Of a DNA stretch of 64,000 nt, positions 3,630-63,802 are shown piece after piece. The notes below the pieces were generated by a model. That model saw only the letters and a program-made list of their open reading frames with translations, made no database searches and was not told the origin of the DNA. The DNA comes from Candidatus Endomicrobium embiratermitis (GTDB lineage Bacteria; Elusimicrobiota; Endomicrobiia; Endomicrobiales; Endomicrobiaceae): assembly GCA_009781315.1 (NCBI GenBank), contig WQYI01000002.1:61415-125414 (forward strand). The letters are read 5' to 3'. The position numbers and the translations under genes were made by a program. Numbering within the stretch: the stretch's first letter is position 1; the number at the start of each line of letters is the position of its first letter.

Positions 3630-5369
3630 ATGAAAGAACAAAAATCATTGGATACTTTGAGACATTCCGCGTCGCATATAATGGCTGCGGCCGTTACAGA
3701 ACTTTTTCCGGATACAAAAGTCGCGATAGGCCCTTCCATAGAAGAAGGCTTTTACTACGATTTCGACAGACCCGAGCCGTTTACCCCCGAAGATTTGTCG
3801 AAAATAGAAGAAAAAATGAAAGAGATTATAAAAGAGAATCATCCTTTTGTTTGTTCTTCCGTGCCAAAAGACGATGCGGTCAAAGAATTTAACTCAAAAG
3901 GCGAAAAATACAAAGCCGAAATAGCTTCGGAAATTCCCGATGACAAAGTCAGTATTTATAAATCCGGAGATTTTACCGACCTTTGCAGAGGTCCTCACGT
4001 CGCTTCGACGGGAGAAGTACAAAATTTTAAGCTTCTTTCCGTTGCCGGCGCGTACTGGAGAGGGGATTCTTCAAGAGAGATGCTGCAAAGGATTTACGGC
4101 ACCGCGTTTTTTACAAAAGAAGATTTAGACGAATATTTAAAGAAACTTGAAGAAATACAAAAAAGAGACCACAGAAAACTCGGAAAAGATTTAGACCTTT
4201 TCAGCGTTCACGACGCGGTAGGTGGAGGACTTGTTTTGTGGCACCCAAAAGGCGCTCTTTTAAGAGATATAATCGAAACCTACTGGAAACAGTTTCATAT
4301 TAACAATGGTTACGAGCTGTTGCTTACGCCTCATATAGCAAGCGAAGAACTTTTCAGCATAAGCGGCCATTTGCAGACGTATTCCGAAAATATGTACGCG
4401 CCGATGGAAATAGAGGGCAAACCATACCGCGTAAAACCCATGAATTGCCCCATGCATTTAATGGTGTATAAAACAAAGCTTCACTCTTACAGGGAGCTTC
4501 CGATAAGGTACGCTGAGCTCGGAACGGTTTACAGGTTTGAGAAATCTGGCGTTTTGCACGGACTTTTACGCGTCAGGGGGTTTACGCAGGACGACGGACA
4601 TGTAATAGTTTCTCCGGAACAGCTTGAAGGCGAAATGCTTACGATTTTTAATATGGCCGTAAATATGCTTAAAACTTTCGGTTTTAGCGATTATAAAATT
4701 TATCTTGCCACAAGACCTGAAAAAAAATACGTAGGAGAAGTTTCAGATTGGGAAAAAGCTCAAAAATCAATAGAAAGCGCTTTGAAAAAAACAGGTTATG
4801 AATATGAACTTGACGAAGGCGGCGGCGCTTTTTACGGTCCCAAAATAGACATAAAAATAAAAGACGCCATAGGCAGGCTATGGCAGTGTTCTACTATACA
4901 GTTTGATTTTAACCTTCCGGAAAGATTTGATATTACATATATTGATTCATCCGGAAAAAAAGCAAGACCTTATATGATTCACAGAGCTTTAATGGGTTCG
5001 CTTGAAAGATTTACAGGCGTTTTACTTGAGCATTATTCGGGCGCGCTTCCTTTATGGCTGTCGCCGATACAAGTTGCTATAGCTAATATCAACGATGAGC
5101 AGAGCGAATATTGTAAAGAGTTGCTGGATAAATTGAAAAAAGAGGGAATAAGAGCTGTTTTAGACGACAGAAATGAAAAAATCGGCCATAAAATCAGGGA
5201 AAACGCAATGCAGAAAATACCTTATATAGCGGTTGTAGGAAACAAAGAAAAAGAAGCCGGTTCTGTTGCCGTAAGAGCAAGGGGAAACAAAGATTTAGGC
5301 GTAATTAAAATTGACGATTTTATAAACCTTTTAAAAGAAAAAAGCATTCCCGGCGTAAACGAACTTTAA
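3630..5369 (+). CDS. thrS: Threonine--tRNA ligase (short form lacking the N-terminal TGS domain)
   Basis: 579 aa; begins at the HxxxH editing-domain region ([12 protein letters not shown]), followed by the class II core and a C-terminal anticodon-binding domain. Confidence 0.92.
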
Positions 5370-5373
5370 AGGC

Positions 5374-5408
5374 AAAGTTCAAAGTGTAAAGTGAAAAGTT
5401 CAAAGAGC
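5374..5408. repeat. Solo arm of the AAAGTGAAAAGTG composite-element family (family 2)
   Basis: caaagttcaaagtgtaaagtgaaaagttcaaagagc matches the 5' arms of the elements at 37186, 49014, 55535 and 61361, but no core or partner arm follows. Confidence 0.5.
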
Positions 5409-5409
5409 A

Positions 5410-12545: not shown

Positions 12546-12613
12546 GTCATTCCGTTGGAAAACGGGATCCACGTTATTAGTTAAAAATGGATTCCGTTTT
12601 TCAACGGAATGAC
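12546..12613. repeat. Nested palindrome, GTCATTCC-type
   Basis: gtcattccgttggaaaacgggatcc ... ggattccgttttcaacggaatgac. Confidence 0.7.
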
Positions 12614-12651
12614 ACGACAAGAACAGGGGGGGGTAAGAAACTCGATTGATA

Positions 12652-18611: not shown

Positions 18612-18790
18612 AAACGATTTTTCGTTTTGTTTATTCAAGCGCCGAGCGCATTCATTAAAAATTTTTAAAACAATTTGCGGAACTTGCGGCAGATAAAGAC
18701 TTATAAGGTTGCCGCTTCAAACAGTCCTCAATAGATTTTTAAAAAAATTTAATTCATAGACCGCGCTAATGCGCTTTGCATAAACAAAAC
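18612..18790 (-). mobile_element. MITE-like ~175-bp element with terminal inverted repeats (same family as 52262-52440, opposite orientation)
   Basis: The reverse complement aligns along its whole length with 52262-52440; termini gttttgtttatgcaaagcgc / gcgcttgaataaacaaaac. Confidence 0.7.
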
Positions 18791-18892
18791 AGGGTATTTC
18801 AAGACAACGACAAAGACGAGGAGGCTAGTATTTAAAGCAAGCAGTTGGAAAGGCAGGTAGTATTAGCAGTGATAATATATCTATAAATAAAA

Positions 18893-21912: not shown

Positions 21913-21933
21913 TTATTGACAAAAAACGCAAAC

Positions 21934-22032
21934 GGCAGAGGCAGAGATGCGGAGATGCAGGGAAAAGACAAAAGCAAAGACAGTTGTGTCGTTAACTCCG
22001 CATCTCTGCCTCTCTGCATCTCCACATCTGCA
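21934..22032. repeat. Composite palindromic element, family 4, copy 2 (divergent intergenic region)
   Basis: gcagaggcagagatgcggagatgcaggg ... ctccgcatctctgcctctctgcatctccacatctgc. Confidence 0.7.
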
Positions 22033-22096
22033 GTTTTGACACTACATATACTATTTTGATATCATTACGGAAATAATCATACAAAAAGAGGCATAG

Positions 22097-24153: not shown

Positions 24154-24155
24154 AA

Positions 24156-24268
24156 GACAAATAACAATTAACAAATGATAATTTACAATTAACGGCAAAA
24201 AACTATAGCAACAAGTTGACTTTAATTGTTATTTGTAAATTGTAAACTGTTAATTGTGGTTAATTGGG
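24156..24268. repeat. Composite palindromic element, TAACAATTAACAAAT family (family 1)
   Basis: aaataacaattaacaaatgataatttacaattaacgg ... ttaattgttatttgtaaattgtaaactgttaattgtggttaattgg; the 3' end runs into the GGGGG SD of dapA. Confidence 0.7.
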
Positions 24269-24274
24269 GGATGT

Positions 24275-26755: not shown

Positions 26756-26880
26756 TTACTTGTCTTTAAATATCCGGAGCGTTCTATTCGTCTGTCATTC
26801 CCGCGAAAGCGGGAATCCAAGTTTAACATGACTCCCCTATTAAGACATTCGGGGATGACAAAAGGAAGGGTTTAAAACCT
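26756..26880. repeat. Palindromic element, GTCATTCCCGCGAAAGCGGGAATC type
   Basis: gtcattcccgcgaaagcgggaatc plus tcccctattaagacattcggggatgacaaaagg; the same core recurs at 40355-40390. Confidence 0.65.
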
Positions 26881-32745: not shown

Positions 32746-33141
32746 GTGGAAAAGATAATAAAAGTTTTAAAGTTCGATGACAAAGGATTAATTCCGGCCG
32801 TAGTGCAGGACTGGAAAGACAATGCCGTTTTAATGGTCGCGTATATGAATAAAGAGGCTGTTTTAAGAACCCTTAAAACAAAAAAAGCTACTTTCTGGAG
32901 CCGTTCAAGGCAGTCTTTTTGGGTAAAAGGCGAAAGTTCCGGAAATATCCAGAAAGTCAAAGAATTTTATTATGACTGCGACGGCGACTGCATACTTTTA
33001 AAAGTTAACCAAATCGGCGGAGCGGCGTGCCATACGGGGCATAGAAGCTGCTTTTTTACAAAAGTTACTTCGACCGGCAATACTAAAACCATTGGAAAGA
33101 AGTTGTTTGATCCGGAGAAAGTCTACAAAAAAGACAAGTAA
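32746..33141 (+). CDS. hisI: Phosphoribosyl-AMP cyclohydrolase
   Basis: 131 aa; CDGD and CHTG metal-binding motifs; HisI only, no HisE fusion. Confidence 0.88.
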
Positions 33142-33215
33142 CAATTTACAAATAACAATGAAAAACAATGTTTTTGTCGTTTTGTCGTTAATTGTAAATT
33201 ATTAATTGAAAATTG
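33139..33215. repeat. Composite palindromic element, family 1
   Basis: taacaatttacaaataacaatg ... cgttaattgtaaattattaattgaaaattgg; the 3' end supplies the GGAG RBS of trpF. Confidence 0.65.
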
Positions 33216-33850: not shown

Positions 33851-33876
33851 AGGCAATTACGAATTATAAATTTCGG

Positions 33877-34851: not shown

Positions 34852-34855
34852 AAAG

Positions 34856-34958
34856 CAATTAACAAATAACAATTTACAATTGACAAATGAAAACTGTCAA
34901 AAAAATTTAATTATTATTTATAATCTGTTAATTGTGCTTTGTTAATTATTAATTGTCT
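34856..34958. repeat. Composite palindromic element, family 1
   Basis: aattaacaaataacaatttacaattgacaaatg ... taatctgttaattgtgctttgttaattattaattg, followed by GGGGG. Confidence 0.7.
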
Positions 34959-34975
34959 TTATGGGGGAATTGAAA

Positions 34976-35784: not shown

Positions 35785-35915
35785 CGAAGTGTCATCCTGA
35801 ATCCCCGATTACGAATTTCGAGGATAAACTCCGTGAAGGATCCATGTTAAACTGTTATCTATTCTTCAATGCTTCGCATTTCAGAATGACAACAACGGCA
35901 ATGATTAGAGGTATT
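35785..35915. repeat. Long imperfect palindrome, GACGCGAAGTGTCATCC type
   Basis: tgacgcgaagtgtcatcctgaatc ... gcttcgcatttcagaatgacaac; the 5' end is related to 58258-58280. Confidence 0.6.
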
Positions 35916-37176: not shown

Positions 37177-37185
37177 TTCAAACAA

Positions 37186-40305: not shown

Positions 40306-40314
40306 ATGAAACAA

Positions 40315-40450
40315 TTAGGAATTAGGAGTGAGGAGTTAGGAATTAACGACAAAAGACTTTGTCATTCCCGCGAAAGCGGGAATCTAAGTTTTCTAAAAGT
40401 TTGCGGCGAAGCCGCTCCAAAATTCCTAATTCCTAATTTCTAACTCCTAA
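40315..40450. repeat. Composite palindromic element, ATTAGGAATTAGGAG arm flavour
   Basis: Arms attaggaattaggagtgaggagttaggaatt / aattcctaattcctaatttctaactcctaatt; core gtcattcccgcgaaagcgggaat plus tttgcggcgaagccgctccaaaatt. Confidence 0.75.
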
Positions 40451-40473
40451 TTAAATATAAAGAGGGGATATTT

Positions 40474-41983: not shown

Positions 41984-42000
41984 TAAAACAGTTAGTAATT

Positions 42001-42100
42001 AGTAGTGAGTAGTTAGTAGTTGTTGTGCGGGGCTTTGCCCCGCTAATAAACAGGTGCGCAAAGCGCACTCCAAAATTACTCACTATTCACTACTCACTGA
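42001..42100. repeat. Composite palindromic element, AGTAGTGAGTAG arm flavour
   Basis: Arms cagttagtaattagtagtgagtagttagtag / tactcactattcactactcactg; core gcggggctttgccccgc plus gtgcgcaaagcgcactccaaaatt. Confidence 0.75.
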
Positions 42101-42121: not shown

Positions 42122-42301
42122 ATGTTGAACTTTGGCTGGCTTAAAAGAAACAAAGGTCAGGGTATGGTAGAGTATATTTTGATTGTTGCCGTGGTTGTAG
42201 GCATCGTATTTGCGGCTTATAAACTTATGGGCGGGTCTGTAAAAGAGCAATTCGGAAAAGCCCAGACTACTATTGAAAATGCGGATGCAGAGAAAAAATA
42301 G
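42122..42301 (+). CDS. flp: Flp/Fap-family type IVb pilin (59 aa; not in the ORF track)
   Basis: MLNFGWLKRNKGQGMVEYILIVAVVVGIVFAAY...: Flp motif G-xxxx-EY followed by a hydrophobic helix; GGGGAG RBS upstream; precedes cpaB. Confidence 0.8.
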   Translation: MLNFGWLKRNKGQGMVEYILIVAVVVGIVFAAYKLMGGSVKEQFGKAQTTIENADAEKK

Positions 42302-42304
42302 TCT

Positions 42305-43147
42305 ATGAAAAAAACGATATTATTGTCGGTTATTTTTGCCGTTGCCGCATCGTTTTTTGCTTACGTATATCTTTCGGGTTTGGAAACAAAATACAAACAG
42401 ATGTCCGAGCCTGTAAAAGTTGTAGTGGCGGCGCAGAGAATCGCCCAAGGAACGGTTATTGGAAAAAATATGCTTGCCGAAAAAAATGTTCCTAAAGAAT
42501 ACGTTCAGCCTAAAGTTTTTGAGGCTGTCGGGAACCTTTTTTCAAAAGACTGGTCACCGGTATACATAGCGTTAAATACCATTGAACCCGGCGAACAGAT
42601 ACTTTCGACAAAAGTTTCGCAAACAAATCAAGATACGGGAATATCCAATATTATCCCGGACGGTCAGAAAGCTTTGGCAGTAAATTTCGACGCGGACAGT
42701 TCTCTTGTCATAACTCCCGGAAGCAGAATAGACGTTTTGAGCATAATAGAATATTCCGACGGCAATAAACAATTCCATCAATCTGTTTTCCCGGTGGCTC
42801 AAAATATTCTTGTTTTGGCTGTAGGAAATAATTATTTGGGTTCCGCTAAAAGAAAAGGCGATGATGAATCGTCATCGGGTAAAGGAATACTCACATTGGC
42901 TGTAAGCATCGAAGACGCTCAGGCGATACTTCTTGCGGGCGAAAAAGGGATTTTAAAATATATAATACGTCCCGCAGGCGACGAAACCGTAACGGAAATA
43001 AAACCTTTAAAAATGTCGGATATTATCAAAGATATTTCAAAAACTTCATATCAGTCCGATATTAAAAAATCCGCCGCGGAAAAAGCCGTAAACCAAAGCC
43101 GGAAAGAAGCGCTGGAAATAATAAATAAATACGCAAAAGGCGAGTAA
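42305..43147 (+). CDS. cpaB: Flp pilus assembly protein CpaB/RcpC
   Basis: 280 aa; N-terminal TM helix, SAF/CpaB domain. Confidence 0.75.
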   Translation: MKKTILLSVIFAVAASFFAYVYLSGLETKYKQMSEPVKVVVAAQRIAQGTVIGKNMLAEKNVPKEYVQPKVFEAVGNLFSKDWSPVYIALNTIEPGEQILSTKVSQTNQDTGISNIIPDGQKALAVNFDADSSLVITPGSRIDVLSIIEYSDGNKQFHQSVFPVAQNILVLAVGNNYLGSAKRKGDDESSSGKGILTLAVSIEDAQAILLAGEKGILKYIIRPAGDETVTEIKPLKMSDIIKDISKTSYQSDIKKSAAEKAVNQSRKEALEIINKYAKGE

Positions 43148-47035: not shown

Positions 47036-47098
47036 GGTTTTGTTTATGTAAAGCGCGTTAGTGCGAATGCGTGCGGCGCTTGAATAAACAAAACAAAA
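47036..47098. mobile_element. Internally deleted derivative of the MITE-like element (terminal inverted repeats only)
   Basis: gttttgtttatgtaaagcgcgttagtgcg ... cgtgcggcgcttgaataaacaaaac, matching both ends of 52262-52440. Confidence 0.6.
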
Positions 47099-47106
47099 AA
47101 TATTGA

Positions 47107-47203: not shown

Positions 47204-47276
47204 GGGCCCGTAGCTCAGCCGGTAGAGCACCTCACTTTTAATGAGGTTGTCGTGCGTTCGAGCCGCACCGGGCTCA
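47204..47276 (+). tRNA. tRNA-Lys (anticodon TTT)
   Basis: Acceptor GGGCCCG/CGGGCTC plus A; anticodon stem CCTCA/TGAGG, loop CTTTTAA; T-arm GTGCG-TTCGAGC-CGCAC. Confidence 0.9.
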
Positions 47277-47287
47277 TTTTTAATCAA

Positions 47288-47360
47288 GCCCCCATCGTCT
47301 AGGGGTCTAGGACACATGATTTTCAATCATGCGACCGGGGTTCAAATCCCCGTGGGGGCG
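47288..47360 (+). tRNA. tRNA-Glu (anticodon TTC)
   Basis: Acceptor GCCCCCA/TGGGGGC plus G; anticodon stem CATGA/TCATG, loop TTTTCAA; T-arm CGGGG-TTCAAAT-CCCCG. Confidence 0.9.
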
Positions 47361-48991: not shown

Positions 48992-49013
48992 TAAAAGCAG
49001 AGTAAGAATAATA

Positions 49014-49146
49014 AAAAGTGTAAAGTTGAAAGTTAAAAGTGAAAATTACGTGTTTTCGCTTTGCGAAAACTAATTAATTTGATTTCGGCTTTGTCGAAAT
49101 TCATTATTTTAACTTTGCACTTCTCACTTTTCACTTTGTCGTTAAA
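49014..49146. repeat. Composite palindromic element, family 2 (core hairpins in swapped order)
   Basis: aaaagtgtaaagttgaaagttaaaagtgaaaat ... gttttcgctttgcgaaaac ... gatttcggctttgtcgaaat ... ctttgcacttctcacttttcactttgtcgttaaaaaagg. Confidence 0.75.
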
Positions 49147-52261: not shown

Positions 52262-52440
52262 AACCCTGTTTTGTTTATGTAAAGCGCATTAGCGTGGCTT
52301 ATGAATTAAAAATTTTTAAAAATCTTGAGGACTGTCCGAAGCGGCAACCTTATAAGCCTTTATTTGCCGCAAGTTCCGCAAACTGTTTTAAAAATTTTTA
52401 ATGAATGCGCTCGGCGCTTGAATAAACAAAACGAAAAAGC
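52262..52440 (+). mobile_element. MITE-like ~175-bp element with ~20-bp imperfect terminal inverted repeats
   Basis: gttttgtttatgtaaagcgcattagcg ... cgctcggcgcttgaataaacaaaacg, with internal sub-palindromes; full copy at 18612-18790 (inverted) and deleted copy at 47036-47098. Confidence 0.7.
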
Positions 52441-52624: not shown

Positions 52625-53107
52625 ATGAAATGTCCTTTTTGCGGAAGTTTTGAAGACCAAGTGCTTGATTCCCGCCCGATTGAACATTTGCCTGCCGTAA
52701 GGCGGCGCAGAGAATGTTCCGGCTGTAAAAAAAGGTATACCACTTTTGAAAGGCCTGAAGAAATAAGCCTTATGGTTGTTAAATCTGACCAAAGCAGGCA
52801 GCCTTTTGACAGAAAAAAGATTTGGGAAGGCATAGACAGAGCGTGCCGCAAACGTCCTATTGCCGTTGAAACAATAGACAAAATCGTAAGCGAAATAGAA
52901 AACGAGCTGACAGGCGAATACGTTATGGAAATACCGTCAAGCGTTATAGGACAGAAAATTTTAGATAAACTTTGGGACGTAGACCTTGTGGCGTATATAA
53001 GGTTTGCTTCGGTATATAGAAAATTCGGCGACATAGACACTTTTATGGCCGAACTTAAAAAACTTAAAAAAGAACATATAAAAAGACAATTGAAAAATAA
53101 CAAATAA
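52625..53107 (+). CDS. nrdR: Transcriptional repressor NrdR
   Basis: MKCPFCGSFEDQVLDSR zinc ribbon plus ATP-cone. Confidence 0.92.
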   Translation: MKCPFCGSFEDQVLDSRPIEHLPAVRRRRECSGCKKRYTTFERPEEISLMVVKSDQSRQPFDRKKIWEGIDRACRKRPIAVETIDKIVSEIENELTGEYVMEIPSSVIGQKILDKLWDVDLVAYIRFASVYRKFGDIDTFMAELKKLKKEHIKRQLKNNK

Positions 53108-53196
53108 CAGATAACAATTAAAAACGGCTGTAGTAATAAGGCAGCTTTGAAGTTTTAATTAATTTGTCAATTGTAAATTGTTAATTGTTGTTAATC
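53098..53196. repeat. Composite palindromic element, family 1 (between nrdR and nrdJ)
   Basis: aacaaataacagataacaattaaaaacgg ... ttaattaatttgtcaattgtaaattgttaattgttgttaatc followed by TGGGGG. Confidence 0.7.
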
Positions 53197-55534: not shown

Positions 55535-55666
55535 CAAAGTAGAAAGTTAAAAGTGTAAAGTGAAAATATTGTGTTTCGGCAAAGCCGAAACAGAGTTTAG
55601 GTTTTTGCAAAGCAAAAACACATCTTAACTTTTAACTCTTCACTTTTCACTTTGTCGTTAAAAAAG
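55535..55666. repeat. Composite palindromic element, family 2
   Basis: caaagtagaaagttaaaagtgtaaagtgaaaat ... gtttcggcaaagccgaaac ... gtttttgcaaagcaaaaac ... cttaacttttaactcttcacttttcactttgtcgttaaaaaaggg. Confidence 0.8.
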
Positions 55667-55672
55667 GGATTT

Positions 55673-56260
55673 ATGGTAAAAAGCGATAAATGGATTAAAC
55701 GGATGGCTCTTGATAAGAAAATCATAGAGCCGTTTGAAGCCGGGCAAATAAAACAAATAGACGGTAAAGGCGTTATATCTTTCGGCACTTCGTCTTATGG
55801 TTACGATATGCGTTTGTCAGACGAGTTTATGGTTATGAAAGTCCGTACCGGACAGGAAGGCCAAGGAAGTGTTGAAGCGCTTGACCCTAAAAATTCAGCC
55901 GAAAGGCTGTTTGAACCCATAAAAGTAAAAGATTACATAATAATCCCGCCCAACTCAATTGTTTTGGGAAAAACTATAGAGTATTTTAGAATACCGAGAG
56001 ACATTGTCACAATAGCGTTCGGTAAATCTACTTACGCAAGGTGCGGCATTTTTGTAAATGTAACGCCGTTTGAGCCGGAGTGGGAAGGGTATGTAACTCT
56101 TTCTATAGCAAATACTACGGCTTTGCCGGTAAAAGTATATGCCAATGAAGGTATTGCCCAGGTTCTTTTTTTAGGCCCGGACGAAATGTGTGAAATATCG
56201 TATGCCGACAGAAAAGGCAAGTATCAGGCTCAAAAAATCATAACTTCGGCGAAAATTTAG
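55673..56260 (+). CDS. dcd: dCTP deaminase
   Basis: Begins [21 protein letters not shown]; dUTPase-like fold. The ORF track start at 55652 lies in the repeat. Confidence 0.88.
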
Positions 56261-56703: not shown

Positions 56704-58233
56704 ATGATTTTAATTTTAGATTTCGGTTCTCAGTATACGCAGCTTATAGCAAGGCGTATAAGGGAAGAGAAAGTTTACTGCGAAATATATCCCGGAAATA
56801 AATCTTTAGCAGATTTGGAAAATTTAAGAGATTTGAAAGGCGTAATACTTTCCGGCGGTTATGACAGCGTTTATTCTAAAGGCGCTCCTCACCCGGACCC
56901 GAAAATCTGGGAACTCGGCGTTCCTGTTTTGGGTATTTGTTACGGAATGCAGCTTATAGCCGAACTTTTCGGCGGCAAAGTAAGCCCGTCAAATAAAAGG
57001 GAATTTGGTCTGGCTTTGATAAACGTAAACCCCAAAAGCGAATTGTTAAAGGGGCTTAGCCGCGGGGAAACGCTGTGGATGAGCCATGGCGACAAACTTT
57101 CCAAAATGCCGAAAAATTTTAAAATAACCGCAAAATCATCAAATTCTCCTTACGCCGCCATAGAAAACGTTAAAGATAAGATATACGGCGTTCAGTTTCA
57201 CCCCGAAGTAAAACATTCCGTGCACGGCAGAAAAATTCTTCAAAACTTTATATTCGGCATATGCGGTTCCAAGCGCGACTGGACAATGAAATCTTATATT
57301 GTCGATGAAGTCAAAAGAATCAAAAATCAGGTCGGCAAGGGTAAAGTTTTATGCGCTCTTTCCGGCGGGGTTGATTCGTCAGTCGCGGCGGTTATGCTTC
57401 ATAAAGCTATAGGAAAACGGCTTGTATGCGTTTTTGTCGATCATGGTTTGCAAAAACTCGGCGAAAATGACAGGGTAAAAAAAATATTCGGGAAAAAGTT
57501 TGGTAAAAACCTTATTATGGTTGACGCGAGAAAATTTTTTCTTGGAAGGCTTAAAGGCGTAACAGACCCGGAGCATAAGAGAAAGATAATAGGACACACT
57601 TTCATAGAAGTTTTTGACAAAGAAGCTGCTAAATTAAAAGGAATAGATTTCCTCCTTCAGGGAACAATTTATCCTGACGTCATTGAAAGCATTTCAGTTA
57701 AAGGCGCGAAAGTCGCGATAAAGAGCCATCACAATGTCGGCGGGCTTCCGGAAAAAATGAAAATGAAGCTGGTTGAGCCTTTGAAATTTCTCTTTAAAGA
57801 CGAAGTCAGAATTTTGGGCAGGGAACTTAATATTCCCGACGAAATCATAAACAGACAGCCTTTTCCGGGTCCGGGACTTGCAGTAAGGTGTATCGGAGAA
57901 ATAACCGAAGAAAAGCTCAGGATCTTAAAGGAAGCGGACTATATAGTCACGCAGGAGATAAGAAAAGCCGGTCTGTACGAAAAAATCTGGCAGTCTTTTG
58001 CCATAATTTTACCCGTAAAAACAGTAGGCGTTATGGGCGATGTGAGAACATACGAACACGTTATAGTTTTAAGAGCAGTAAATTCTGAAGACGCCATGAC
58101 TGCGGACTGGGTAAAACTTCCTTATGATTTGCTCGGCAGAATATCTTCAAGAATTATAAATGAAGTAAAAGGCGCAAACAGAGTAGTTTACGATATTTCC
58201 AACAAACCGCCGGCAACCATCGAATGGGAATAA
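56704..58233 (+). CDS. guaA: GMP synthase (glutamine-hydrolysing)
   Basis: 509 aa; GATase (GICYGMQ; QFHPE) plus ATP-PPase SGGVDSSV. Confidence 0.92.
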
Positions 58234-58249
58234 ATTTATAGCGTCTTAA

Positions 58250-58340
58250 TAAAATTGACACGAAGTGTCACCCCGTTGAAAAACGGGGTCTCAGTTAATA
58301 ATAAACATGGATACCGACTTTCGTCGGTATGACAAAAGAT
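58250..58340. repeat. Cluster of three short hairpins, GACACGAAGTGTCACC type
   Basis: gacacgaagtgtcac; ccccgttgaaaaacgggg; ataccgactttcgtcggtat. Confidence 0.6.
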
Positions 58341-58562
58341 ATGATTAACATCTTGCTTTTGTCAATTTTTAAGCCTTTAACGACAACGGCTGTCGCAGGC
58401 GTCGCCTAAACGCAAAAATACTTTGCCTTTAACGGCAAATACTACGCCTCTTAAACGGCAAGTAAAGACATATAAAATGTAATATAATGCAAGACGTTAT
58501 ATATTACTTTTTATATGTTATATTTTATATGTTTTTAAATTTTGTTTTCATTAAGGGGTATA

Positions 58563-59447
58563 ATGAAACAATTTTGTATATTTGTTTTGTGTTTTTTTGC
58601 TTTTTTTATATCTTCCTGTTCCCGTCCTGCCGGAAAAGACGGGGAGTATGCGGCGTCTATACAAATAAAAGGGTCGGATACCATAGTTAACCTTGTTCAG
58701 GTTTGGGCTGAAAGGTTTGTGGAAAATAACCCTTCATGTAATATAGGCGTTACCGGCGGCGGTTCGGGAACCGGTTTTGCGGCTCTGTTAAACAACACTT
58801 GCGATATAGCGATGTCGTCAAGAGAAATAGAGGAAAAAGAAAAAATTAAAGCTACGGAAAAAAATATAAATCCCGTTGAACATATGGTAGGTCTTGACGG
58901 TTTGGCGATACTTATAAATAAAAATAATCCCGTGGATAAGTTGACTTTGGAACAGTTACGGGATATTTTTATGGCAAAGATTACAAACTGGAAAGAAATC
59001 GGCGGGGAAGACAGAAAAATAGTTATTCTTTCCCGCGAAAGCAATTCCGGCACGCATATGTTTTTTAAAGAACACGTTTTAAGGCATAAAGATAAAAAAT
59101 CGAAAGAAGAATTCTCTCCGCGCGCATTGCTTATGCCGTCGTCTCAGGCAATATATGACGAAGTCTATCAAAACCCTAACGCCTTAGGATATGTCGGAAT
59201 GGGTTATATCAACGATAAGGTCAAAGCGGTTTTAGTCGCGATAAACGAAAACAGCGAATATTTTTACCCGAATGTCGAAAACGTAATGACGGGACAATAT
59301 CCGATTTCAAGGCCTTTATACCTTTATACCGACGGCGATCCTCACGACGTTGTTGAAAAATTTATAGAGTACGCTTTATCAGACGAAGGGCAAAAAATCG
59401 TAGCTGAAACTGATTTTGTGCCGATAAACAAGACAAGTAATAAATAA
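58563..59447 (+). CDS. pstS: Phosphate ABC transporter, periplasmic substrate-binding protein
   Basis: Signal/lipoprotein peptide (MKQFCIFVLCFFAFFISSC); PBP superfamily (GSGTG). Confidence 0.88.
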   Translation: MKQFCIFVLCFFAFFISSCSRPAGKDGEYAASIQIKGSDTIVNLVQVWAERFVENNPSCNIGVTGGGSGTGFAALLNNTCDIAMSSREIEEKEKIKATEKNINPVEHMVGLDGLAILINKNNPVDKLTLEQLRDIFMAKITNWKEIGGEDRKIVILSRESNSGTHMFFKEHVLRHKDKKSKEEFSPRALLMPSSQAIYDEVYQNPNALGYVGMGYINDKVKAVLVAINENSEYFYPNVENVMTGQYPISRPLYLYTDGDPHDVVEKFIEYALSDEGQKIVAETDFVPINKTSNK

Positions 59448-59527
59448 AATATAACATGTAAAATATTTTTATTCCCTCGCCCCTTGCGGGAGAGGGACAA
59501 GCGGAGCTTGAGGGTGAGGGGTCGCTT

Positions 59528-60397
59528 TTGAAACGTAAAATAATTGATACTATCATTGAAAAAATAATATTTTTTTGCGGAATACTGGCAATAGTCTTTG
59601 TCACGCTTATATTCGGTTTTTTGCTTAAAGAAGGCTTTGCGTTTTTTAAAGAATACGGCGTTATAAGTTTTATAGCCGGAAAATTGTGGTATCCTACCTC
59701 TGATCCGGCGCAATTCGGCATACTTTCCATGATAGTCGGTTCTCTTTTAGTGACCGCTGGCGCTTGTGTAATTGCGGTTCCTATAGGCATTATGGCTGCG
59801 TTATACATTTCCGAAATTGCTCCCAAAGGAGTGAGAGACGTTTTGAAATCTTTTATAGAACTTATGGCTGCGGTTCCAAGCGTTGTTATAGGTTTTGTCG
59901 GCATGGTTACGCTTGTTCCTCTTGTAAGAACTATTTTTGATCTTCCTACGGGGCTTACTGCTTTTTCAGGTTCTATAATGCTTGCGTTTATGGCAATGCC
60001 TACTATAGTTACCATATCCGAAGACGCTATACGTTCGGTTCCGTGGTCGTATAAAGAAGGAGCGTTGGCGCTCGGCGCGACTAAATGGCAGACGATACGC
60101 CGCATAGTTTTAAAAGCGGCAATGCCCGGAATTATCGCAGCGGTAATGCTCGGGATAGGGCGCGTTGTCGGTGAAACTATGGCTGTTATGATGATAACCG
60201 GAAACGCGGCTCATATACCTAGTTCTATTTTTGAGCCTGTTCGTACGATGACGGCGACTATTGCAGCCGAAATGGGCGAGACAGTCCGGGGCGGAATGCA
60301 TTACAGGGCGTTATTTGCCATAGGGCTTGTTCTGTTTATTATTACGTTTATAGTAAATTTTATAGCGGACTTATTTTTGGGAAAAAGCAAGAAGTAA
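59528..60397 (+). CDS. pstC: Phosphate ABC transporter permease
   Basis: 289 aa; 6 TM helices; EAA-like loop. Confidence 0.85.
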   Translation: MKRKIIDTIIEKIIFFCGILAIVFVTLIFGFLLKEGFAFFKEYGVISFIAGKLWYPTSDPAQFGILSMIVGSLLVTAGACVIAVPIGIMAALYISEIAPKGVRDVLKSFIELMAAVPSVVIGFVGMVTLVPLVRTIFDLPTGLTAFSGSIMLAFMAMPTIVTISEDAIRSVPWSYKEGALALGATKWQTIRRIVLKAAMPGIIAAVMLGIGRVVGETMAVMMITGNAAHIPSSIFEPVRTMTATIAAEMGETVRGGMHYRALFAIGLVLFIITFIVNFIADLFLGKSKK

Positions 60398-60495
60398 TTA
60401 ACAATTAACAATTAATAATGAACAATTGTTGAGCGCGCTTTGCGCGCATATAATTTGCGGCTTTGCCGCTCCAAAATTGTTATTTGTAATTTGGT
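60396..60495. repeat. Composite palindromic element, family 1 (between pstC and pstA)
   Basis: aattaacaattaacaattaataatgaacaattg ... gagcgcgctttgcgcgc ... ttgcggctttgccgctccaaaattg ... ttatttgtaatttgg. Confidence 0.75.
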
Positions 60496-60502
60496 GTTAA
60501 AA

Positions 60503-61357
60503 ATGTTTAAACTAAATCCTAAACTATCACAGAAAATTTCATATTCGATTTTATTTTGCGCGACGATACTTGCCATTATTCCGGTGGCAGTCATTATTTT
60601 TATTATTATAAAAAACGGCGCCTCGGCGATAACATGGGAATTTTTAACTTCTATGCCCAAAAACGGCATGAGAGGCGGAGGTATTCTTCCCGCTATAATA
60701 GGAACACTTTCGATAGTTATGTGCGCTATTGCCGTCACTTTGCCGATAGGTGTTTGCGCGGCTATATATTTAAACGAGTATGCGAAAGACAATCTGCTTA
60801 CAAGAATAATAAAACTTGCGATCGTAAATCTTGCGGGCGTTCCGTCGGTAGTATACGGGTTGTTCGGGCTCGGAATTTTCGTAATGTTTTTAAAACTCGG
60901 CGTGTCGATTATTGCCGGAGCCTTAACTTTGGCTATAATGGAGTTACCGGTAATTATAACTACGGCAAGAGGCGCGCTAAACAGCGTGCCGTATTCTTTC
61001 AGGGAAGCAAGCTTATCTTTAGGCGTAAGCCGCTGGCAGACTATAAGGCATGTTGTTTTGCCTAATGCTTTGCCGGGAATTTTAACGGGAGCGATTTTAA
61101 GCATAGCAAGAATTTCGGGAGAAACCGCGCCGATAATGTTTACCGCGGCGGCTTTTTATGTTCCGCATCTTCCGACGTCCGCTTTTGACCAGGTTATGGC
61201 TTTACCGTACCATTTGTATATTATTTCAACCCAGATACCGGGTATGCCCAAAAACATAATTTTCGGCACGGCTTTGGTTTTATTAATGATGGTTTTATCG
61301 ATGAGCTTAATCGCTATAATAGCAAGAATATATTTCAGAAAACGCAGAAAATGGTAA
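60503..61357 (+). CDS. pstA: Phosphate ABC transporter permease
   Basis: Begins MFKLNPK...; 6 TM helices. Confidence 0.85.
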   Translation: MFKLNPKLSQKISYSILFCATILAIIPVAVIIFIIIKNGASAITWEFLTSMPKNGMRGGGILPAIIGTLSIVMCAIAVTLPIGVCAAIYLNEYAKDNLLTRIIKLAIVNLAGVPSVVYGLFGLGIFVMFLKLGVSIIAGALTLAIMELPVIITTARGALNSVPYSFREASLSLGVSRWQTIRHVVLPNALPGILTGAILSIARISGETAPIMFTAAAFYVPHLPTSAFDQVMALPYHLYIISTQIPGMPKNIIFGTALVLLMMVLSMSLIAIIARIYFRKRRKW

Positions 61358-61360
61358 TTT

Positions 61361-61492
61361 TAACGACAAAGTGAAGAGTGAAAAGTGTAGAGTGTAAATA
61401 TTGTGTTTCGGCGAAGCCGAAACGGATTAAATGTTTTTGCAAAGCAAAAACTCATTATTTCCACTTTTAACTTTCAACTTTTCAAATTGTCT
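61361..61492. repeat. Composite palindromic element, family 2 (between pstA and pstB1)
   Basis: acgacaaagtgaagagtgaaaagtgtagagtg ... gtttcggcgaagccgaaac ... gtttttgcaaagcaaaaac ... ccacttttaactttcaacttttcaaattgtc. Confidence 0.8.
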
Positions 61493-61504
61493 CTGCAGGT
61501 AAAA

Positions 61505-62254
61505 ATGGATAAAATAAAAGTTGAAAATTTAAGTTGTTTTTATGGCGGACAATGCGTTTTGGAATCGTTGGATATCAACGTTGTCAAAAACGAGATACTG
61601 ACTATTATAGGCCCCGCAAACAGCGGCAAAACCACTTTTTTAAGAACTCTTAACAGAATGAGCGATTTAAACACTAGTTATTCGCGTAAAGGCACTGTAT
61701 ATCTCGACGATGAAAATATTTTTAATATGAATATGGAAAAACTCAGGAAACGCGTCGGAATGCTTTTCGCAATGCCCATACCTTTGCCTATGACGATTTA
61801 TGAAAATATAGTTTACGCGCCTAAAAGACTCGGGCTTGTTTCTAAAAAAAACGAAATGGACGCTGTTGTAGAACAGGCTTTGAAAGACGCTTCTTTATGG
61901 GACGAGGTTAAAGACAGGCTTAACTCTTCGGGAATGAAACTTTCCGGCGGCCAGCAGCAAAGGCTTTGCATAGCAAGAATATTAGCGATAAATCCCGAAG
62001 TTATTTTATTTGACGAACCCTGCTCCGGACTTGATCCTATTTCAACTGCGAAAGTAGAAGAATCTATGATAGAGTTGAAAGAAAAATATACTATCGTCCT
62101 TGTGACGAATAACGTAAAACAGGCTTCAAGAGTAGGCGACAGAACTGCGTTTTTCCTTATGGGAAAACTTGTAGAAATTGATAAAACGGGAACTATGTTT
62201 GTTTCGCCGAAGCAGAAACAGACGGAAGACTATATTACAGGCAGATTTGGATAA
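61505..62254 (+). CDS. pstB: Phosphate import ATP-binding protein PstB, copy 1
   Basis: Begins MDKIKVENLS; Walker A GPANSGKTT; signature LSGGQQQRL. Confidence 0.88.
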   Translation: MDKIKVENLSCFYGGQCVLESLDINVVKNEILTIIGPANSGKTTFLRTLNRMSDLNTSYSRKGTVYLDDENIFNMNMEKLRKRVGMLFAMPIPLPMTIYENIVYAPKRLGLVSKKNEMDAVVEQALKDASLWDEVKDRLNSSGMKLSGGQQQRLCIARILAINPEVILFDEPCSGLDPISTAKVEESMIELKEKYTIVLVTNNVKQASRVGDRTAFFLMGKLVEIDKTGTMFVSPKQKQTEDYITGRFG

Positions 62255-62261
62255 TAACGGC

Positions 62262-62320
62262 AGTTAACAATTTACAAATAATAATTAACAAATTTGTTTT
62301 AAATTGTTAATTATAAATTG
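62262..62320. repeat. Composite palindromic element, family 1 (short; between pstB1 and pstB2)
   Basis: cagttaacaatttacaaataataattaacaaatttgttttaaattgttaattataaattgg followed by AG. Confidence 0.65.
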
Positions 62321-62330
62321 GAGTTTTGAT

Positions 62331-63089
62331 TTGGCAATAAAAATACAAATAAAAAATTTTAATCTTTGGTACACGGATTTTCTTGCGCTTAAGAATATAA
62401 ATATCGCTATTGAGGAAAAGCGTATTACCGCAATGATAGGTCCTTCGGGCTGCGGTAAATCTACTCTTTTGCGCGCCATAAACAGAATAAATGACACTAT
62501 TGAAGGCGTGCGTACGGAAGGCGACATAATTATCTCCGGAAAAAGTGTTTACGACAGCAGAGCCGATGTTGAAGTTTTACGCAGAAATGTCGGTATGGTT
62601 TTTCAGCGGCCGAATCCTTTTCCGATTTCTATTTATGAGAATGTGGCTTTCGGTTTGAAAGTCAACAGGATAGAGTCTAAAAAAAGTCTCATTGACGAAA
62701 CGGTTGAAGAAAGTCTTAAGTCTGTTTTACTTTGGGATGACATAAAACATAAACTGAAAAAATCCGCTCTCGAACTTACTTTAGAGCAGCAGCAGAGGCT
62801 TTGCATAGCAAGAGTTATAGCTGTAAAATCGCAAATTATTCTTTTAGACGAACCTTGCTCGTCTCTTGATCCTGTCGCGACACAGAGAATAGAAGAGTTG
62901 ATGCTGCAGCTTAAAGATAAATACACGATAGTCATAGTGACGCACAATATGCAGCAGGCGGCGAGGGTTTCTGCCGATACGGCTTTTATGCTTTTGGGCG
63001 ATCTTATAGAATTTGATAAAACCGAAAAAATATTTACAAATCCCGCTAAAAAAGAAACAAACGATTATGTGAGCGGAAGATTCGGATAA
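62331..63089 (+). CDS. pstB: Phosphate import ATP-binding protein PstB, copy 2
   Basis: Probable TTG start (MAIKIQIKNFNLWY) 7 nt after GGAG; Walker A GPSGCGKST; signature LTLEQQQRL. Confidence 0.85.
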   Translation: MAIKIQIKNFNLWYTDFLALKNINIAIEEKRITAMIGPSGCGKSTLLRAINRINDTIEGVRTEGDIIISGKSVYDSRADVEVLRRNVGMVFQRPNPFPISIYENVAFGLKVNRIESKKSLIDETVEESLKSVLLWDDIKHKLKKSALELTLEQQQRLCIARVIAVKSQIILLDEPCSSLDPVATQRIEELMLQLKDKYTIVIVTHNMQQAARVSADTAFMLLGDLIEFDKTEKIFTNPAKKETNDYVSGRFG

Positions 63090-63124
63090 TGGCAATTACG
63101 AATTACGAATAATTGGGGGAAACT

Positions 63125-63802
63125 ATGAGGCACTTTGAAGTGGAAATGAACGACTTGAAAAAATGTCTTTTGGACATGAGCGATCTTGTTCAGGAGATGA
63201 TAAAAACCACAATCAACGGGCTTGTAAAAAGAGACTTGAAATTGTTCGATACGGTTTTTTGTCTGGAAAAAGAAGTTAATATTCAGGAAATAGTTATTGA
63301 CGATAAATGTTTAAAGCTTATGGCGTTAAACCAGCCTGTCGGAACGGATTTGCGTTTTATTACGTCTGCCGCGAGAATCAGCACTGATTTGGAAAGAATG
63401 GGCGATGAAGCCGTAAATATAAGCGAAAGAGCCGTTAATTTAATAAAATATCCCGAACTCAAACCTCTTATAGATATTCCGAAAATGTCCGATATAGTCC
63501 AGCAGATGGTAACGGATAGCATCAAGGCTTTTAATACTAACGACGTGGAGCTTGCCAATTCCGTGCTTGTCAAAGACGACGAAGTTGACAATTTAAAAGA
63601 TACCGTTTTTAAAGATTTAAAAGTATACATGACAAAATCTACCGAACCGGACACAATAGAAAGAGCCGTTGATTTAATGCTTGTCGCCAAAAGTCTTGAA
63701 AGAATCGGCGATCACGCGACAAATATCAGCGAAGACGTAATTTTTATGGTTCACGGTAAGGATGTCAGGCATCCCAGAACGTGCGCCGCTAAAACCGAAT
63801 AA
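63125..63802 (+). CDS. phoU: Phosphate transport system regulator PhoU
   Basis: Begins MRHFEVEMNDLKK; two PhoU repeats (D..R..D motifs). Confidence 0.88.
   Translation: MRHFEVEMNDLKKCLLDMSDLVQEMIKTTINGLVKRDLKLFDTVFCLEKEVNIQEIVIDDKCLKLMALNQPVGTDLRFITSAARISTDLERMGDEAVNISERAVNLIKYPELKPLIDIPKMSDIVQQMVTDSIKAFNTNDVELANSVLVKDDEVDNLKDTVFKDLKVYMTKSTEPDTIERAVDLMLVAKSLERIGDHATNISEDVIFMVHGKDVRHPRTCAAKTE

Follow-up and report, generated by a model that had tools for sequence, protein, structure and literature searches.

The 64-kb stretch analysed here, from the genome of the uncultured termite-gut bacterium 'Candidatus Endomicrobium embiratermitis' (the window, at its full length) carries a pst operon in which pstC and pstA are separated by a palindromic repeat, the focal element of this work. 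Its arms consist of tandem heptamers in opposite orientations and enclose a core with two small GC hairpins, and the left arm starts within the pstC stop codon TAA (60395–60397). The parts of the focal element, together with the hairpin of another flavour that fills the following spacer, are as follows.

60396–60427 (+): left arm, about 4.6 tandem AATTAAC/TAACAAT heptamers (84% match; Tandem Repeats Finder)
60433–60447 (+): core mini-hairpin A, GCGCGC-TTT-GCGCGC, followed by AUAUAAUUUG and hence weakly terminator-like
60457–60478 (+): core mini-hairpin B, GCGGC-TTT-GCCGC (60457–60469), plus the conserved core end CTCCAAAATT
60474–60492 (+): right arm, inverted heptamers AAATTGTTATTTGTAATTT
60493–60505 (+): weak Shine–Dalgarno (SD)-like GGTG (60493–60496) and the pstA ATG (60503–60505)
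61365–61491 (+): AAAGTGA-flavour hairpin ('family 2') filling the pstA/pstB1 spacer, with mini-hairpins at 61405–61423 and 61433–61451

The heptamer flavour AATTAAC/TAACAAT defines what is referred to here as family 1. The original prediction had listed eight copies or partial copies of it in the window, and direct inspection of the sequence located all eight; those other than the focal element are given below.

24154–24268 (+): hairpin between a DAP-epimerase-like gene and dapA; GGGGG SD at 24266–24270, ancestral
33135–33212 (+): hairpin before trpF; the upstream stop codon lies within the first unit
33855–33875 (+): AATTACG-type array remnant before kpsF, non-hairpin
34853–34960 (+): hairpin before accD
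53086–53196 (+): hairpin before nrdJ; the upstream open reading frame (ORF) shares its last codons with the left arm
62262–62320 (+): hairpin without a core, before pstB2
63093–63115 (+): AATTACG array remnant of 23 nt before phoU

The notion of a repeated hairpin family holds for six of these sites, which are full elements with an arm and an inverted arm, but not for the two partial ones: the remnants at 33855–33875 and 63093–63115 are short arrays of a neighbouring unit, AATTACG, rather than of TAACAAT, and no hairpin fold was found for either. Tandem Repeats Finder resolves the left arms of the full copies into period-7 arrays of ACAATTA/AATTAAC, with 3.7–5.3 copies at 24157, 33134, 34856, 53095, 60396 and 62265, and the right arms into the inverted unit AATTGTA/TTAATTG. 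The arrays are short and imperfect (73–85% match), all six are intergenic, and with at least three head-to-tail 7-nt units they qualify as heptamer simple sequence repeats (LSSR/STRR). As judged by self-complementarity and predicted folds, the opposed arrays of one unit within one spacer are capable of forming a stem-loop. Four full copies (24150, 34848, 53085 and 60390) fold into long AU-rich hairpins with z-scores of −2.2 to −2.5, and the two shorter ones fold more weakly (z = −1.0 for 33130 and −1.5 for 62255). The arms are common to the family, whereas the cores of the different copies are unrelated to one another. Sequence TAACAATTAACAAAT, allowing up to three mismatches, has 31 matches in the window, 25 of which lie inside the six full copies, compared with 10.1 ± 2.95 in dinucleotide shuffles, none of which reached 31. 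The gene names were borne out by Pfam for dapA, trpF, the KpsF-type SIS+CBS isomerase, accD, pstC, pstA, two pstB and phoU, and the nrdJ product is a class II-type ribonucleotide reductase. At the gathering score, Rfam 15 detected only three tRNAs in the window and no family for the repeats, and a permissive Rfam search of 58200–63200 returned one sub-threshold match to a miRNA precursor (22 bits, with 95 required).

Elements do fill the pst junctions, as had been proposed, except that the pstB2/phoU site holds the AATTACG remnant and not a TAACAAT copy. The assignment of the pstA/pstB1 junction to another family is also correct: since the true start of pstB1 is at 61505, this spacer represents a full AAAGTGA-flavour element of about 145 nt. 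Repeats of some kind are present at all five pst junctions in the window and at four of five in locus L001, from a metagenome-assembled genome (MAG) of 'Candidatus Endomicrobium macrotermitis'. The remaining junction, the pstS/pstC spacer (59448–59527), contains a different, GC-rich repeat, ccctcgccccttgcgggagaggg...gagggtgagggg; only about 15 nt are found there in L001. Under a loose consensus, mini-hairpins 60433 and 61433 were the only ones to score as terminator-like, with interrupted T-runs. Intrinsic termination was rejected as the main role of the elements, the long AU-rich stems having no U-tract behind them.

Tandem Repeats Finder and inspection of all intergenic spacers revealed about 22 places in the window with the same plan, that is, three to six tandem 7- or 8-nt units, a variable core and inverted units. 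Many cores contain a pair of small GC mini-hairpins whose loops are 3 nt long (GC-WWW-GC), along with a short conserved end, and at least nine different unit sequences coexist. The positions of the main flavours, and the elements that end next to promoter-like sequences, are listed here.

37178, 49005, 55528 and 61362: AAAGTGA flavour, with a half-array at 5368
40306–40456 (+): AATTAGG-flavour element, core end GCGGC-GAA-GCCGC-TCCAAAATT, as in the focal element
41986–42100 (+): AGTTAGT-flavour element, two mini-hairpins, core end CTCCAAAATT
15062: AATGATT flavour
58460: ATATAAC flavour
33855 and 63093: AATTACG remnants
1486, 15826, 21923, 28090, 30398 and 46000: octamer flavours GAAGTTGA, GCAGAGAT and relatives
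1486–1600: octamer-array hairpin ending just before a promoter-like TTGCAT..TATAAT, ahead of a tRNA at 1677
21923–22037: octamer-array hairpin ending just before a promoter-like TTGACA..TATCAT
5368–5409: unpaired AAAGTG-type array ending just before a promoter-like TTGACA..TATAAT

The class is strongly concentrated in this DNA. A self-alignment scan requiring 7- or 8-nt arm periodicity detected 16 periodic hairpins in the window, one in total in 15 block-shuffles of it, one in about 180 kb from other Endomicrobiia and eight in 869 kb of unrelated loci; a stricter scan for a tandem array with an inverted partner found five elements in the window. Mini-hairpins of the form stem-GC-WWW-GC-stem number 21, compared with 5.6 in shuffles, and 10 of the 21, including most of those with the longest stems, lie inside element cores; at 15–21 nt they vary in sequence while keeping the GC-WWW-GC plan (TTTCGGC/GCCGAAA, TTTTTGC/GCAAAAA, GCGGGGC/GCCCCGC). 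With both the motif and the periodic-hairpin counts far above those in shuffles, an origin by chance or from low complexity was rejected. Not all members sit in operon junctions: the elements at 1486 and 21923 and the half-array at 5368 lie directly upstream of −35 boxes, and the same class of element occurs in one divergent region of the window. Family 1 is thus one flavour among about 22 periodic-arm hairpins in 64 kb, and its status as a special family linked to ribosome-binding sites was rejected.

A resemblance between the focal core (60430–60480) and those at 40315 and 42001 had been noted previously and extends to the whole plan. The elements at 60394, 40306 and 41986 align colinearly and have the core end ...GC-CTCCAAAATT in common; differences between their units are limited to positions 6–7 (AATTA-AC, -GG and -GT), and the right arms are changed to match. 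The sharing of a core by different arm flavours points to a single putative superfamily of common origin. Within one flavour, colinear cores were seen only among the AAAGTGA elements. The mean complementarity of an arm is 16.1 with its own partner, 17.3 with arms of the same flavour at other loci and 6.5 across flavours. Because arms are interchangeable within a flavour, each flavour acts like one family with many copies, its loci not compensating independently of one another, and the test for locus-specific covariation within family 1, which found none, lacks resolving power for the same reason. An independent Logan assembly of the same sequence is identical, but its ends fall within a family-1 arm and a mini-hairpin, where multi-copy repeats would be expected to break it.

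For comparison, we used L001 and twelve further Endomicrobiia loci, together with L203, which also belongs to E. macrotermitis, L202, which belongs to another close relative, and E. proavitum. The PstA of the window is 95% identical to that of L001, and its KpsF is 100% identical to a protein of an 'Endomicrobia bacterium' MAG and 80% identical to that of the isolate E. proavitum. Gene order is conserved among the compared loci, so that the junctions can be compared directly between species, with the following outcome.

dapA-upstream: window, family 1; L203, AGAGTTA-flavour hairpin; L005 and L006, plain spacers of 25–40 nt
trpF-upstream: window, full family 1; L202, hairpin of the AATAATT flavour containing two mini-hairpins; L203, right arm of family 1 alone; E. 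proavitum, spacer of 26 nt
accD-upstream: window, family 1; L202, one AATTACG array; L203, complete AATTACG hairpin; E. proavitum, no element
kpsF-upstream: window and L203, AATTACG remnant; L202, GC-rich repeat of another kind; E. proavitum, GC hairpin between two direct AAAGTGA-type arrays
nrdJ-upstream: window, family 1; L001, near-perfect hairpin with unrelated arms; L007 and L008, plain spacers
pstB1/pstB2: window, family 1 without a core; L001, orthologous element of family 1 with a GC hairpin in its core; L008, overlapping genes
phoU-upstream: window, 23-nt remnant; L001, full near-perfect AATTACG hairpin with 23 consecutive base pairs; more distant relatives, non-periodic spacers

Among 12 other Endomicrobiia, 11 have pstC and pstA genes that overlap (ATGA); for pstA and pstB1 the overlap is ATGGTAG in L008, L011, L013 and L005 and ATGGTAA in L010, and for pstB1 and pstB2 it is TAATG in L008. 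Given these overlaps, the ancestral pst operon was compact and translationally coupled, and the elements of the window and L001 are insertions. The dapA, trpF and accD junctions are likewise plain spacers of about 20–40 nt in L005, L006 or E. proavitum, and E. proavitum and Endomicrobiellum are free of elements at all junctions examined, apart from the kpsF-upstream site in E. proavitum. The elements are thus lineage-specific insertions in an Endomicrobium subclade that are kept at the same junctions in sister species. At these orthologous sites they turn over rapidly: the flavour changes in both arms at once, units come and go as wholes, cores are exchanged and halves are lost, and whole units or whole arms differ at the pstB1/pstB2, accD and phoU junctions between the window and L001, L202 and L203. 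The near-perfect hairpins of L001 have z-scores of −5.6 (phoU-upstream) and −4.3. At fourfold-degenerate sites of the pst genes, the window and L001 agree in only about 55% of positions, a divergence at which a neutral hairpin older than the split should have decayed; accordingly, the elements are either young and recurrent or actively kept complementary. At about 3330–3380 of L001, a heptamer array, gagttaggagtgaggagtcaggagtcaggaattaac, apparently lies inside a region homologous to the window ORF 55652–56260, which may reflect an in-frame insertion or a problem in the assembly of the MAG.

The comparison also bears on the relationship between the elements and translation initiation. Each copy was said to end in aattGGGGG or aattGGAG, with the G-run serving as the SD of the downstream gene; the exact ending aattGG(G/A)G is present in four of the eight copies; in the others, 3–8 nt separate the last unit from the G-run, and at pstA there is just GGTG. 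The idea that the element and the initiation region form one unit found no support in the comparison either, as a G-rich SD is found at the same distance from the start in relatives lacking the element at five of the eight sites: GGGGAGG and GGGGG for dapA (L005 and L006), GGAGG for accD (E. proavitum), GGGAG and GAGG for nrdJ (L008 and L007), AGGAG, GAGGAGG and GGAGGG for phoU (L008, L013 and L011) and, despite the different repeat there, GAGG for kpsF in E. proavitum. Since element-free relatives keep it, the SD is the gene's own, and the element takes up the spacer as far as the SD. The start of a junction element, whatever its flavour, falls in the range from 17 nt ahead of the end of the upstream stop codon to 10 nt past it, and its end lies 6–24 nt before the start codon. 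With every flavour stopping at this distance, abutment on the SD is a consequence of filling a short spacer and not a property of family 1. Only at pstA, and perhaps at trpF, could the SD be derived from the element: the pstA initiation region must be new, because the gene formerly overlapped pstC, and its GGTG sits in what appears to be a mutated last unit (ATTTGGT instead of ATTTGTA), from which the SD may have arisen. Sequestration of the SD in a stem was rejected, the left flanks containing no C-run that could pair with the G-run. The repeat family is, in sum, real and statistically solid, but its link to ribosome-binding sites had been overinterpreted and its membership in a genome-wide class underappreciated.

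The repeats also affect gene calling. The longest-ORF starts of pstA (60440), pstB1 (61403) and nrdJ (53185) run back into repeats; by homology or position, the real starts are at 60503, 61505 and 53209, respectively. Likewise, an ORF listed from 49061 begins inside the element at 49015–49137, and its real start must lie beyond about 49140. The elements break short-read assemblies and cause start codons to be miscalled, and N-termini are likely to be over-extended when such genomes are annotated automatically.

Arrays of this type are not confined to Endomicrobium. A metagenome scan for (TWACAAW)3 returned more than 120 contigs with a GC content of 0.26–0.66; no Endomicrobium-like contig was found among the 80 examined, and about 20 of the 80 contained periodic-arm hairpins. 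Contig L117 is 74% identical to the dapA element over 94 nt. The TAACAAT, TTACAAT and TTACAAA arrays of these contigs (L082–L161) often end 0–15 nt before an ATG with no visible SD, for instance, in L119, L131, L144 and L157.

We consider it probable that the elements are selfish or neutral intergenic palindromic DNA repeats, with family 1 as one flavour of a lineage-specific superfamily. They have invaded short stop-to-SD spacers as well as junctions at which the genes formerly overlapped, and would be tolerated there as self-folding inserts that disrupt neither the stop codon nor the gene's own SD and keep these two in proximity. Complementarity of the arms would be kept at the level of DNA, through slippage of units during replication, switching of template inside the palindrome, and ectopic gene conversion or transposition between elements of the same flavour. 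The junction elements lie between co-directional genes which are presumably co-transcribed, so that long AU-rich RNA hairpins would be produced and stop/start coupling removed. Any effects on mRNA processing, stability or polarity, such as those of the weak terminators at 60433 and 61433, would plausibly be a by-product and not the reason for which the elements exist. Selection for a hairpin in the sense transcript is expected to leave an excess of G·U over A·C among arm mismatches, and this excess is absent, both over all elements (45 G·U and 35 A·C; p = 0.31) and within family 1 (9 and 12, respectively). This absence and the inversion of one of eight cores (49005) fit repeats maintained as DNA better than a selected RNA structure, and the copies at 1486 and 21923 and the half-array at 5368, located before −35 boxes and outside operons, likewise speak for this reading.

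Several observations weigh against this reading. Seven of the eight readable cores (AAAGTGA and CTCCAAAATT-type) are co-oriented relative to transcription, a suggestive but non-significant bias (binomial p ~0.07); among the AAAGTGA elements, all four of which lie between + strand genes, the cores at 37178, 55528 and 61362 have the same orientation and that at 49005 is inverted. Three species keep hairpins at the same junctions although neutral divergence is nearly saturated, a retention that functional selection on the hairpin would account for as well. No transposase, RAYT (REP-associated tyrosine transposase, where REP stands for repetitive extragenic palindrome) or other mobilizing enzyme turned up, in work that included no search aimed at them and Pfam scans of 10 window proteins; nor does the window ORF list contain an insertion sequence (IS). 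No target-site duplications were seen flanking the family-1 copies or the pst-junction elements. Finally, the sample comprises 64 kb from this genome plus about 75 kb from close relatives. In a bolder form of the hypothesis, which strikes us as improbable, the hairpins would be the products of an active, as yet undescribed homogenizing or mobilizing mechanism, for example, a mobile core of about 55 nt with two GC mini-hairpins and 3-nt loops that seeds or converts flanking palindromes of tandem units; they would have replaced translational coupling, for instance, by units processed by RNase III with an exposed SD, and the same process would operate in Cyanobacteria, Xanthomonas and the organisms behind the metagenome contigs.

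The alternative that the elements are selected intercistronic RNA hairpins, acting as RNase III sites, barriers to 3'-exonucleases or weak attenuators that tune the stability or translation of the pstS/pstC/pstA/pstB/phoU mRNA in the manner of the REP at malE-malF, appears rather unlikely. It would account for the presence of repeats at nearly all pst junctions (5/5 in the window, 4/5 in L001), for the persistence of hairpins at orthologous junctions while their sequence changes, for the co-orientation of seven of eight cores and for the terminator-like scores of mini-hairpins 60433 and 61433 with their U-rich tracts. The stems, at 20–30 bp, are also long enough for RNase III, for which this length suffices. 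However, the arms show no sense-strand excess of G·U over A·C, one paralogue (49005) is inverted, the family-1 cores are mutually unrelated, and the same class of element is found upstream of promoters and in a divergent region. Moreover, most Endomicrobiia have a compact pst operon with overlapping genes and without elements, which are therefore not needed for its function.

If the heptamers were iterated sites at which a regulator, nucleoid protein or RNA-binding protein binds DNA or RNA, this would explain why three to six units adjoin start codons, and (TWACAAW)3 arrays occur near gene starts in unrelated metagenome contigs as well (a same-strand start within 40 nt in 22 of 80). For the TAACTGA repeats of other bacteria, S1, Csp or CsrA-like factors have been put forward and a translational role proposed (MacGregor, 2015, PMC4679880). 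We nevertheless hold this possibility to be very unlikely: the metagenome arrays are found near starts in both orientations (22 versus 15), orthologous sites change flavour between species, and a paired inverted arm would sequester a single-stranded site. At least nine unit sequences in one genome are beyond a single binding protein, and an array serving one such protein was rejected on account of this number of flavours. Even less credible, to the point of being extremely improbable, are contingency (phase-variation) loci, in which slippage of heptamers would alter upstream spacing or structure and thereby switch the downstream gene. Heptamer simple sequence repeats are described as slippage-prone (Mrazek, 2007, as cited in PMC4679880), and the number of units does vary between the arms of one element and between species; yet the downstream genes are housekeeping ones (dapA, trpF, accD, nrdJ and pst), the arrays are short and imperfect (73–85% match), the distance from SD to start lies outside the array and is unaffected by slippage, and the independent assembly is identical.

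The window contains further repeats. A palindromic repeat of about 165 nt with the ends GTTTTGTTTATGTAAAGCGC...GCGCTTGAATAAACAAAAC is located at 52268–52432 (+), with an inverted copy at about 18630–18800 and a 60-nt 'solo' form, joining both ends, at about 47040–47100; each copy lies directly upstream of a sigma-70-like promoter, including one before two tRNA genes at 47204–47360. GC hairpin repeats of the GTCATTCCCGCGAAAGCGGGAATC type are present at 26797–26816 and 40364–40383, with related sequences at 12560–12620, 35790–35850 and 58256–58330. One copy of this type is nested in the core of the AATTAGG element, and the motif adjoins a TAACAAT array in metagenome contig L118. Immediately after the AGTTAGT element, a small ORF (42123–42305) encodes a protein resembling Flp-type pilins (MLNFGWLKRNKGQGMVEYILIVAVVVG...), and the syntenic locus of E. 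proavitum encodes a 57-aa Flp_Fap protein in the same tad-like cluster.

If the elements are indeed selfish or neutral DNA repeats, the Endomicrobium subclade represents a natural experiment in which hairpin repeats have been driven into the tightest sites of a small genome, among them the overlapping stop and start codons of an essential transporter operon. The ancestral, compact arrangement survives in culturable and endosymbiotic relatives, so that the costs and benefits of insertion, namely, the loss of translational coupling and the gain of RNA hairpins at every junction, could be compared across species. Heptamer-array hairpins with nested mini-hairpins would then extend from Cyanobacteria and Xanthomonas to a third distant phylum, which would point to a general mutational mechanism rather than to a lineage-specific function.

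In the literature searched, we found no description of such repeats in Endomicrobium, and their affinities were sought among known systems. MITEs, or miniature inverted-repeat transposable elements, have IS-derived terminal inverted repeats and target-site duplications (TA in the case of Correia elements), and Correia RNA is cut by RNase III. The present elements resemble Correia/NEMIS and other MITEs in being intergenic hairpin inserts of about 100–150 nt that are presumably transcribed along with the genes around them; however, MITEs are colinear copies over their whole length, whereas here the arms are arrays of tandem units, the family-1 cores differ, and duplications were not observed. 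REPs are imperfect, GC-rich palindromes of 20–40 nt with a conserved 5' GTAG and are tied to RAYT transposases. Like REPs and bacterial interspersed mosaic elements (BIMEs), including that at malE-malF, the elements are intergenic palindromes inside operons, with which they are presumably transcribed, and the BIME clusters of two hairpins and a linker are reminiscent of the two mini-hairpins of the core; in contrast to them, the mini-hairpins have GC-WWW-GC stems of 5–9 bp without GTAG, and the arms are periodic and AT-rich. Elhai and colleagues reportedly described, in 2008, cyanobacterial STRR heptamers with nested small dispersed repeats (SDR), hairpin modules of about 20–27 nt. Several SDR families are said to exist, with structure but not sequence in common, confined to one coherent subclade and bearing signs of recent mobility. 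Going by these reports, SDR would resemble the present elements in the nesting of hairpin modules in heptamers, in a structure shared across families, in confinement to a subclade and in signs of recent mobility, but the sequences are unrelated to the SDR of Nostoc, inverted pairing of the arrays is the regular arrangement here, and modules mostly occur as pairs.

A further parallel is offered by Xanthomonas, in which 70–75 convergent pairs of GGGAATC arrays are capable of forming stem-loops (Rehm et al., 2015, PMC4692102); the heptamer repeats of Xanthomonas and Nostoc occupy the same junctions in sister species with great variation in length and sequence (PMC4692102). As with GGGAATC, our elements are intergenic tandem heptamers in convergent pairs, mostly between co-directional ORFs and at conserved junctions (PMC4692102). 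The Xanthomonas and Nostoc arrays have one G-rich unit with G-quadruplex potential, whereas many AT-rich flavours are found here and the left arms of family 1 contain no G-runs. In addition, no nested core of GC mini-hairpins has been described for those arrays, which belong to a different phylum and lie nearer to the upstream ORF, whereas here the whole spacer is filled. TAACTGA direct repeats are found a few nucleotides upstream of starts in marine Beggiatoaceae, Cyanobacteria and Bacteroidetes (MacGregor, 2015, PMC4679880). They share with our elements the AT-rich TAAC-type heptamers near starts, indels of 7 nt and close relatives with shorter, repeat-free spacers (PMC4679880), and the start-proximal arrays without an SD in the metagenome contigs resemble the TAACTGA situation. 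Nearly all of the TAACTGA repeats are direct (with one indirect set in 170), canonical SDs are rare and one unit dominates (PMC4679880), whereas the arrays of Endomicrobium are paired with inverted copies, have an SD between the right arm and the start and are built from many units. Taken together, these comparisons identify the elements as intergenic heptamer-array hairpins with nested small palindromes, a known kind of repeat in a new phylum.

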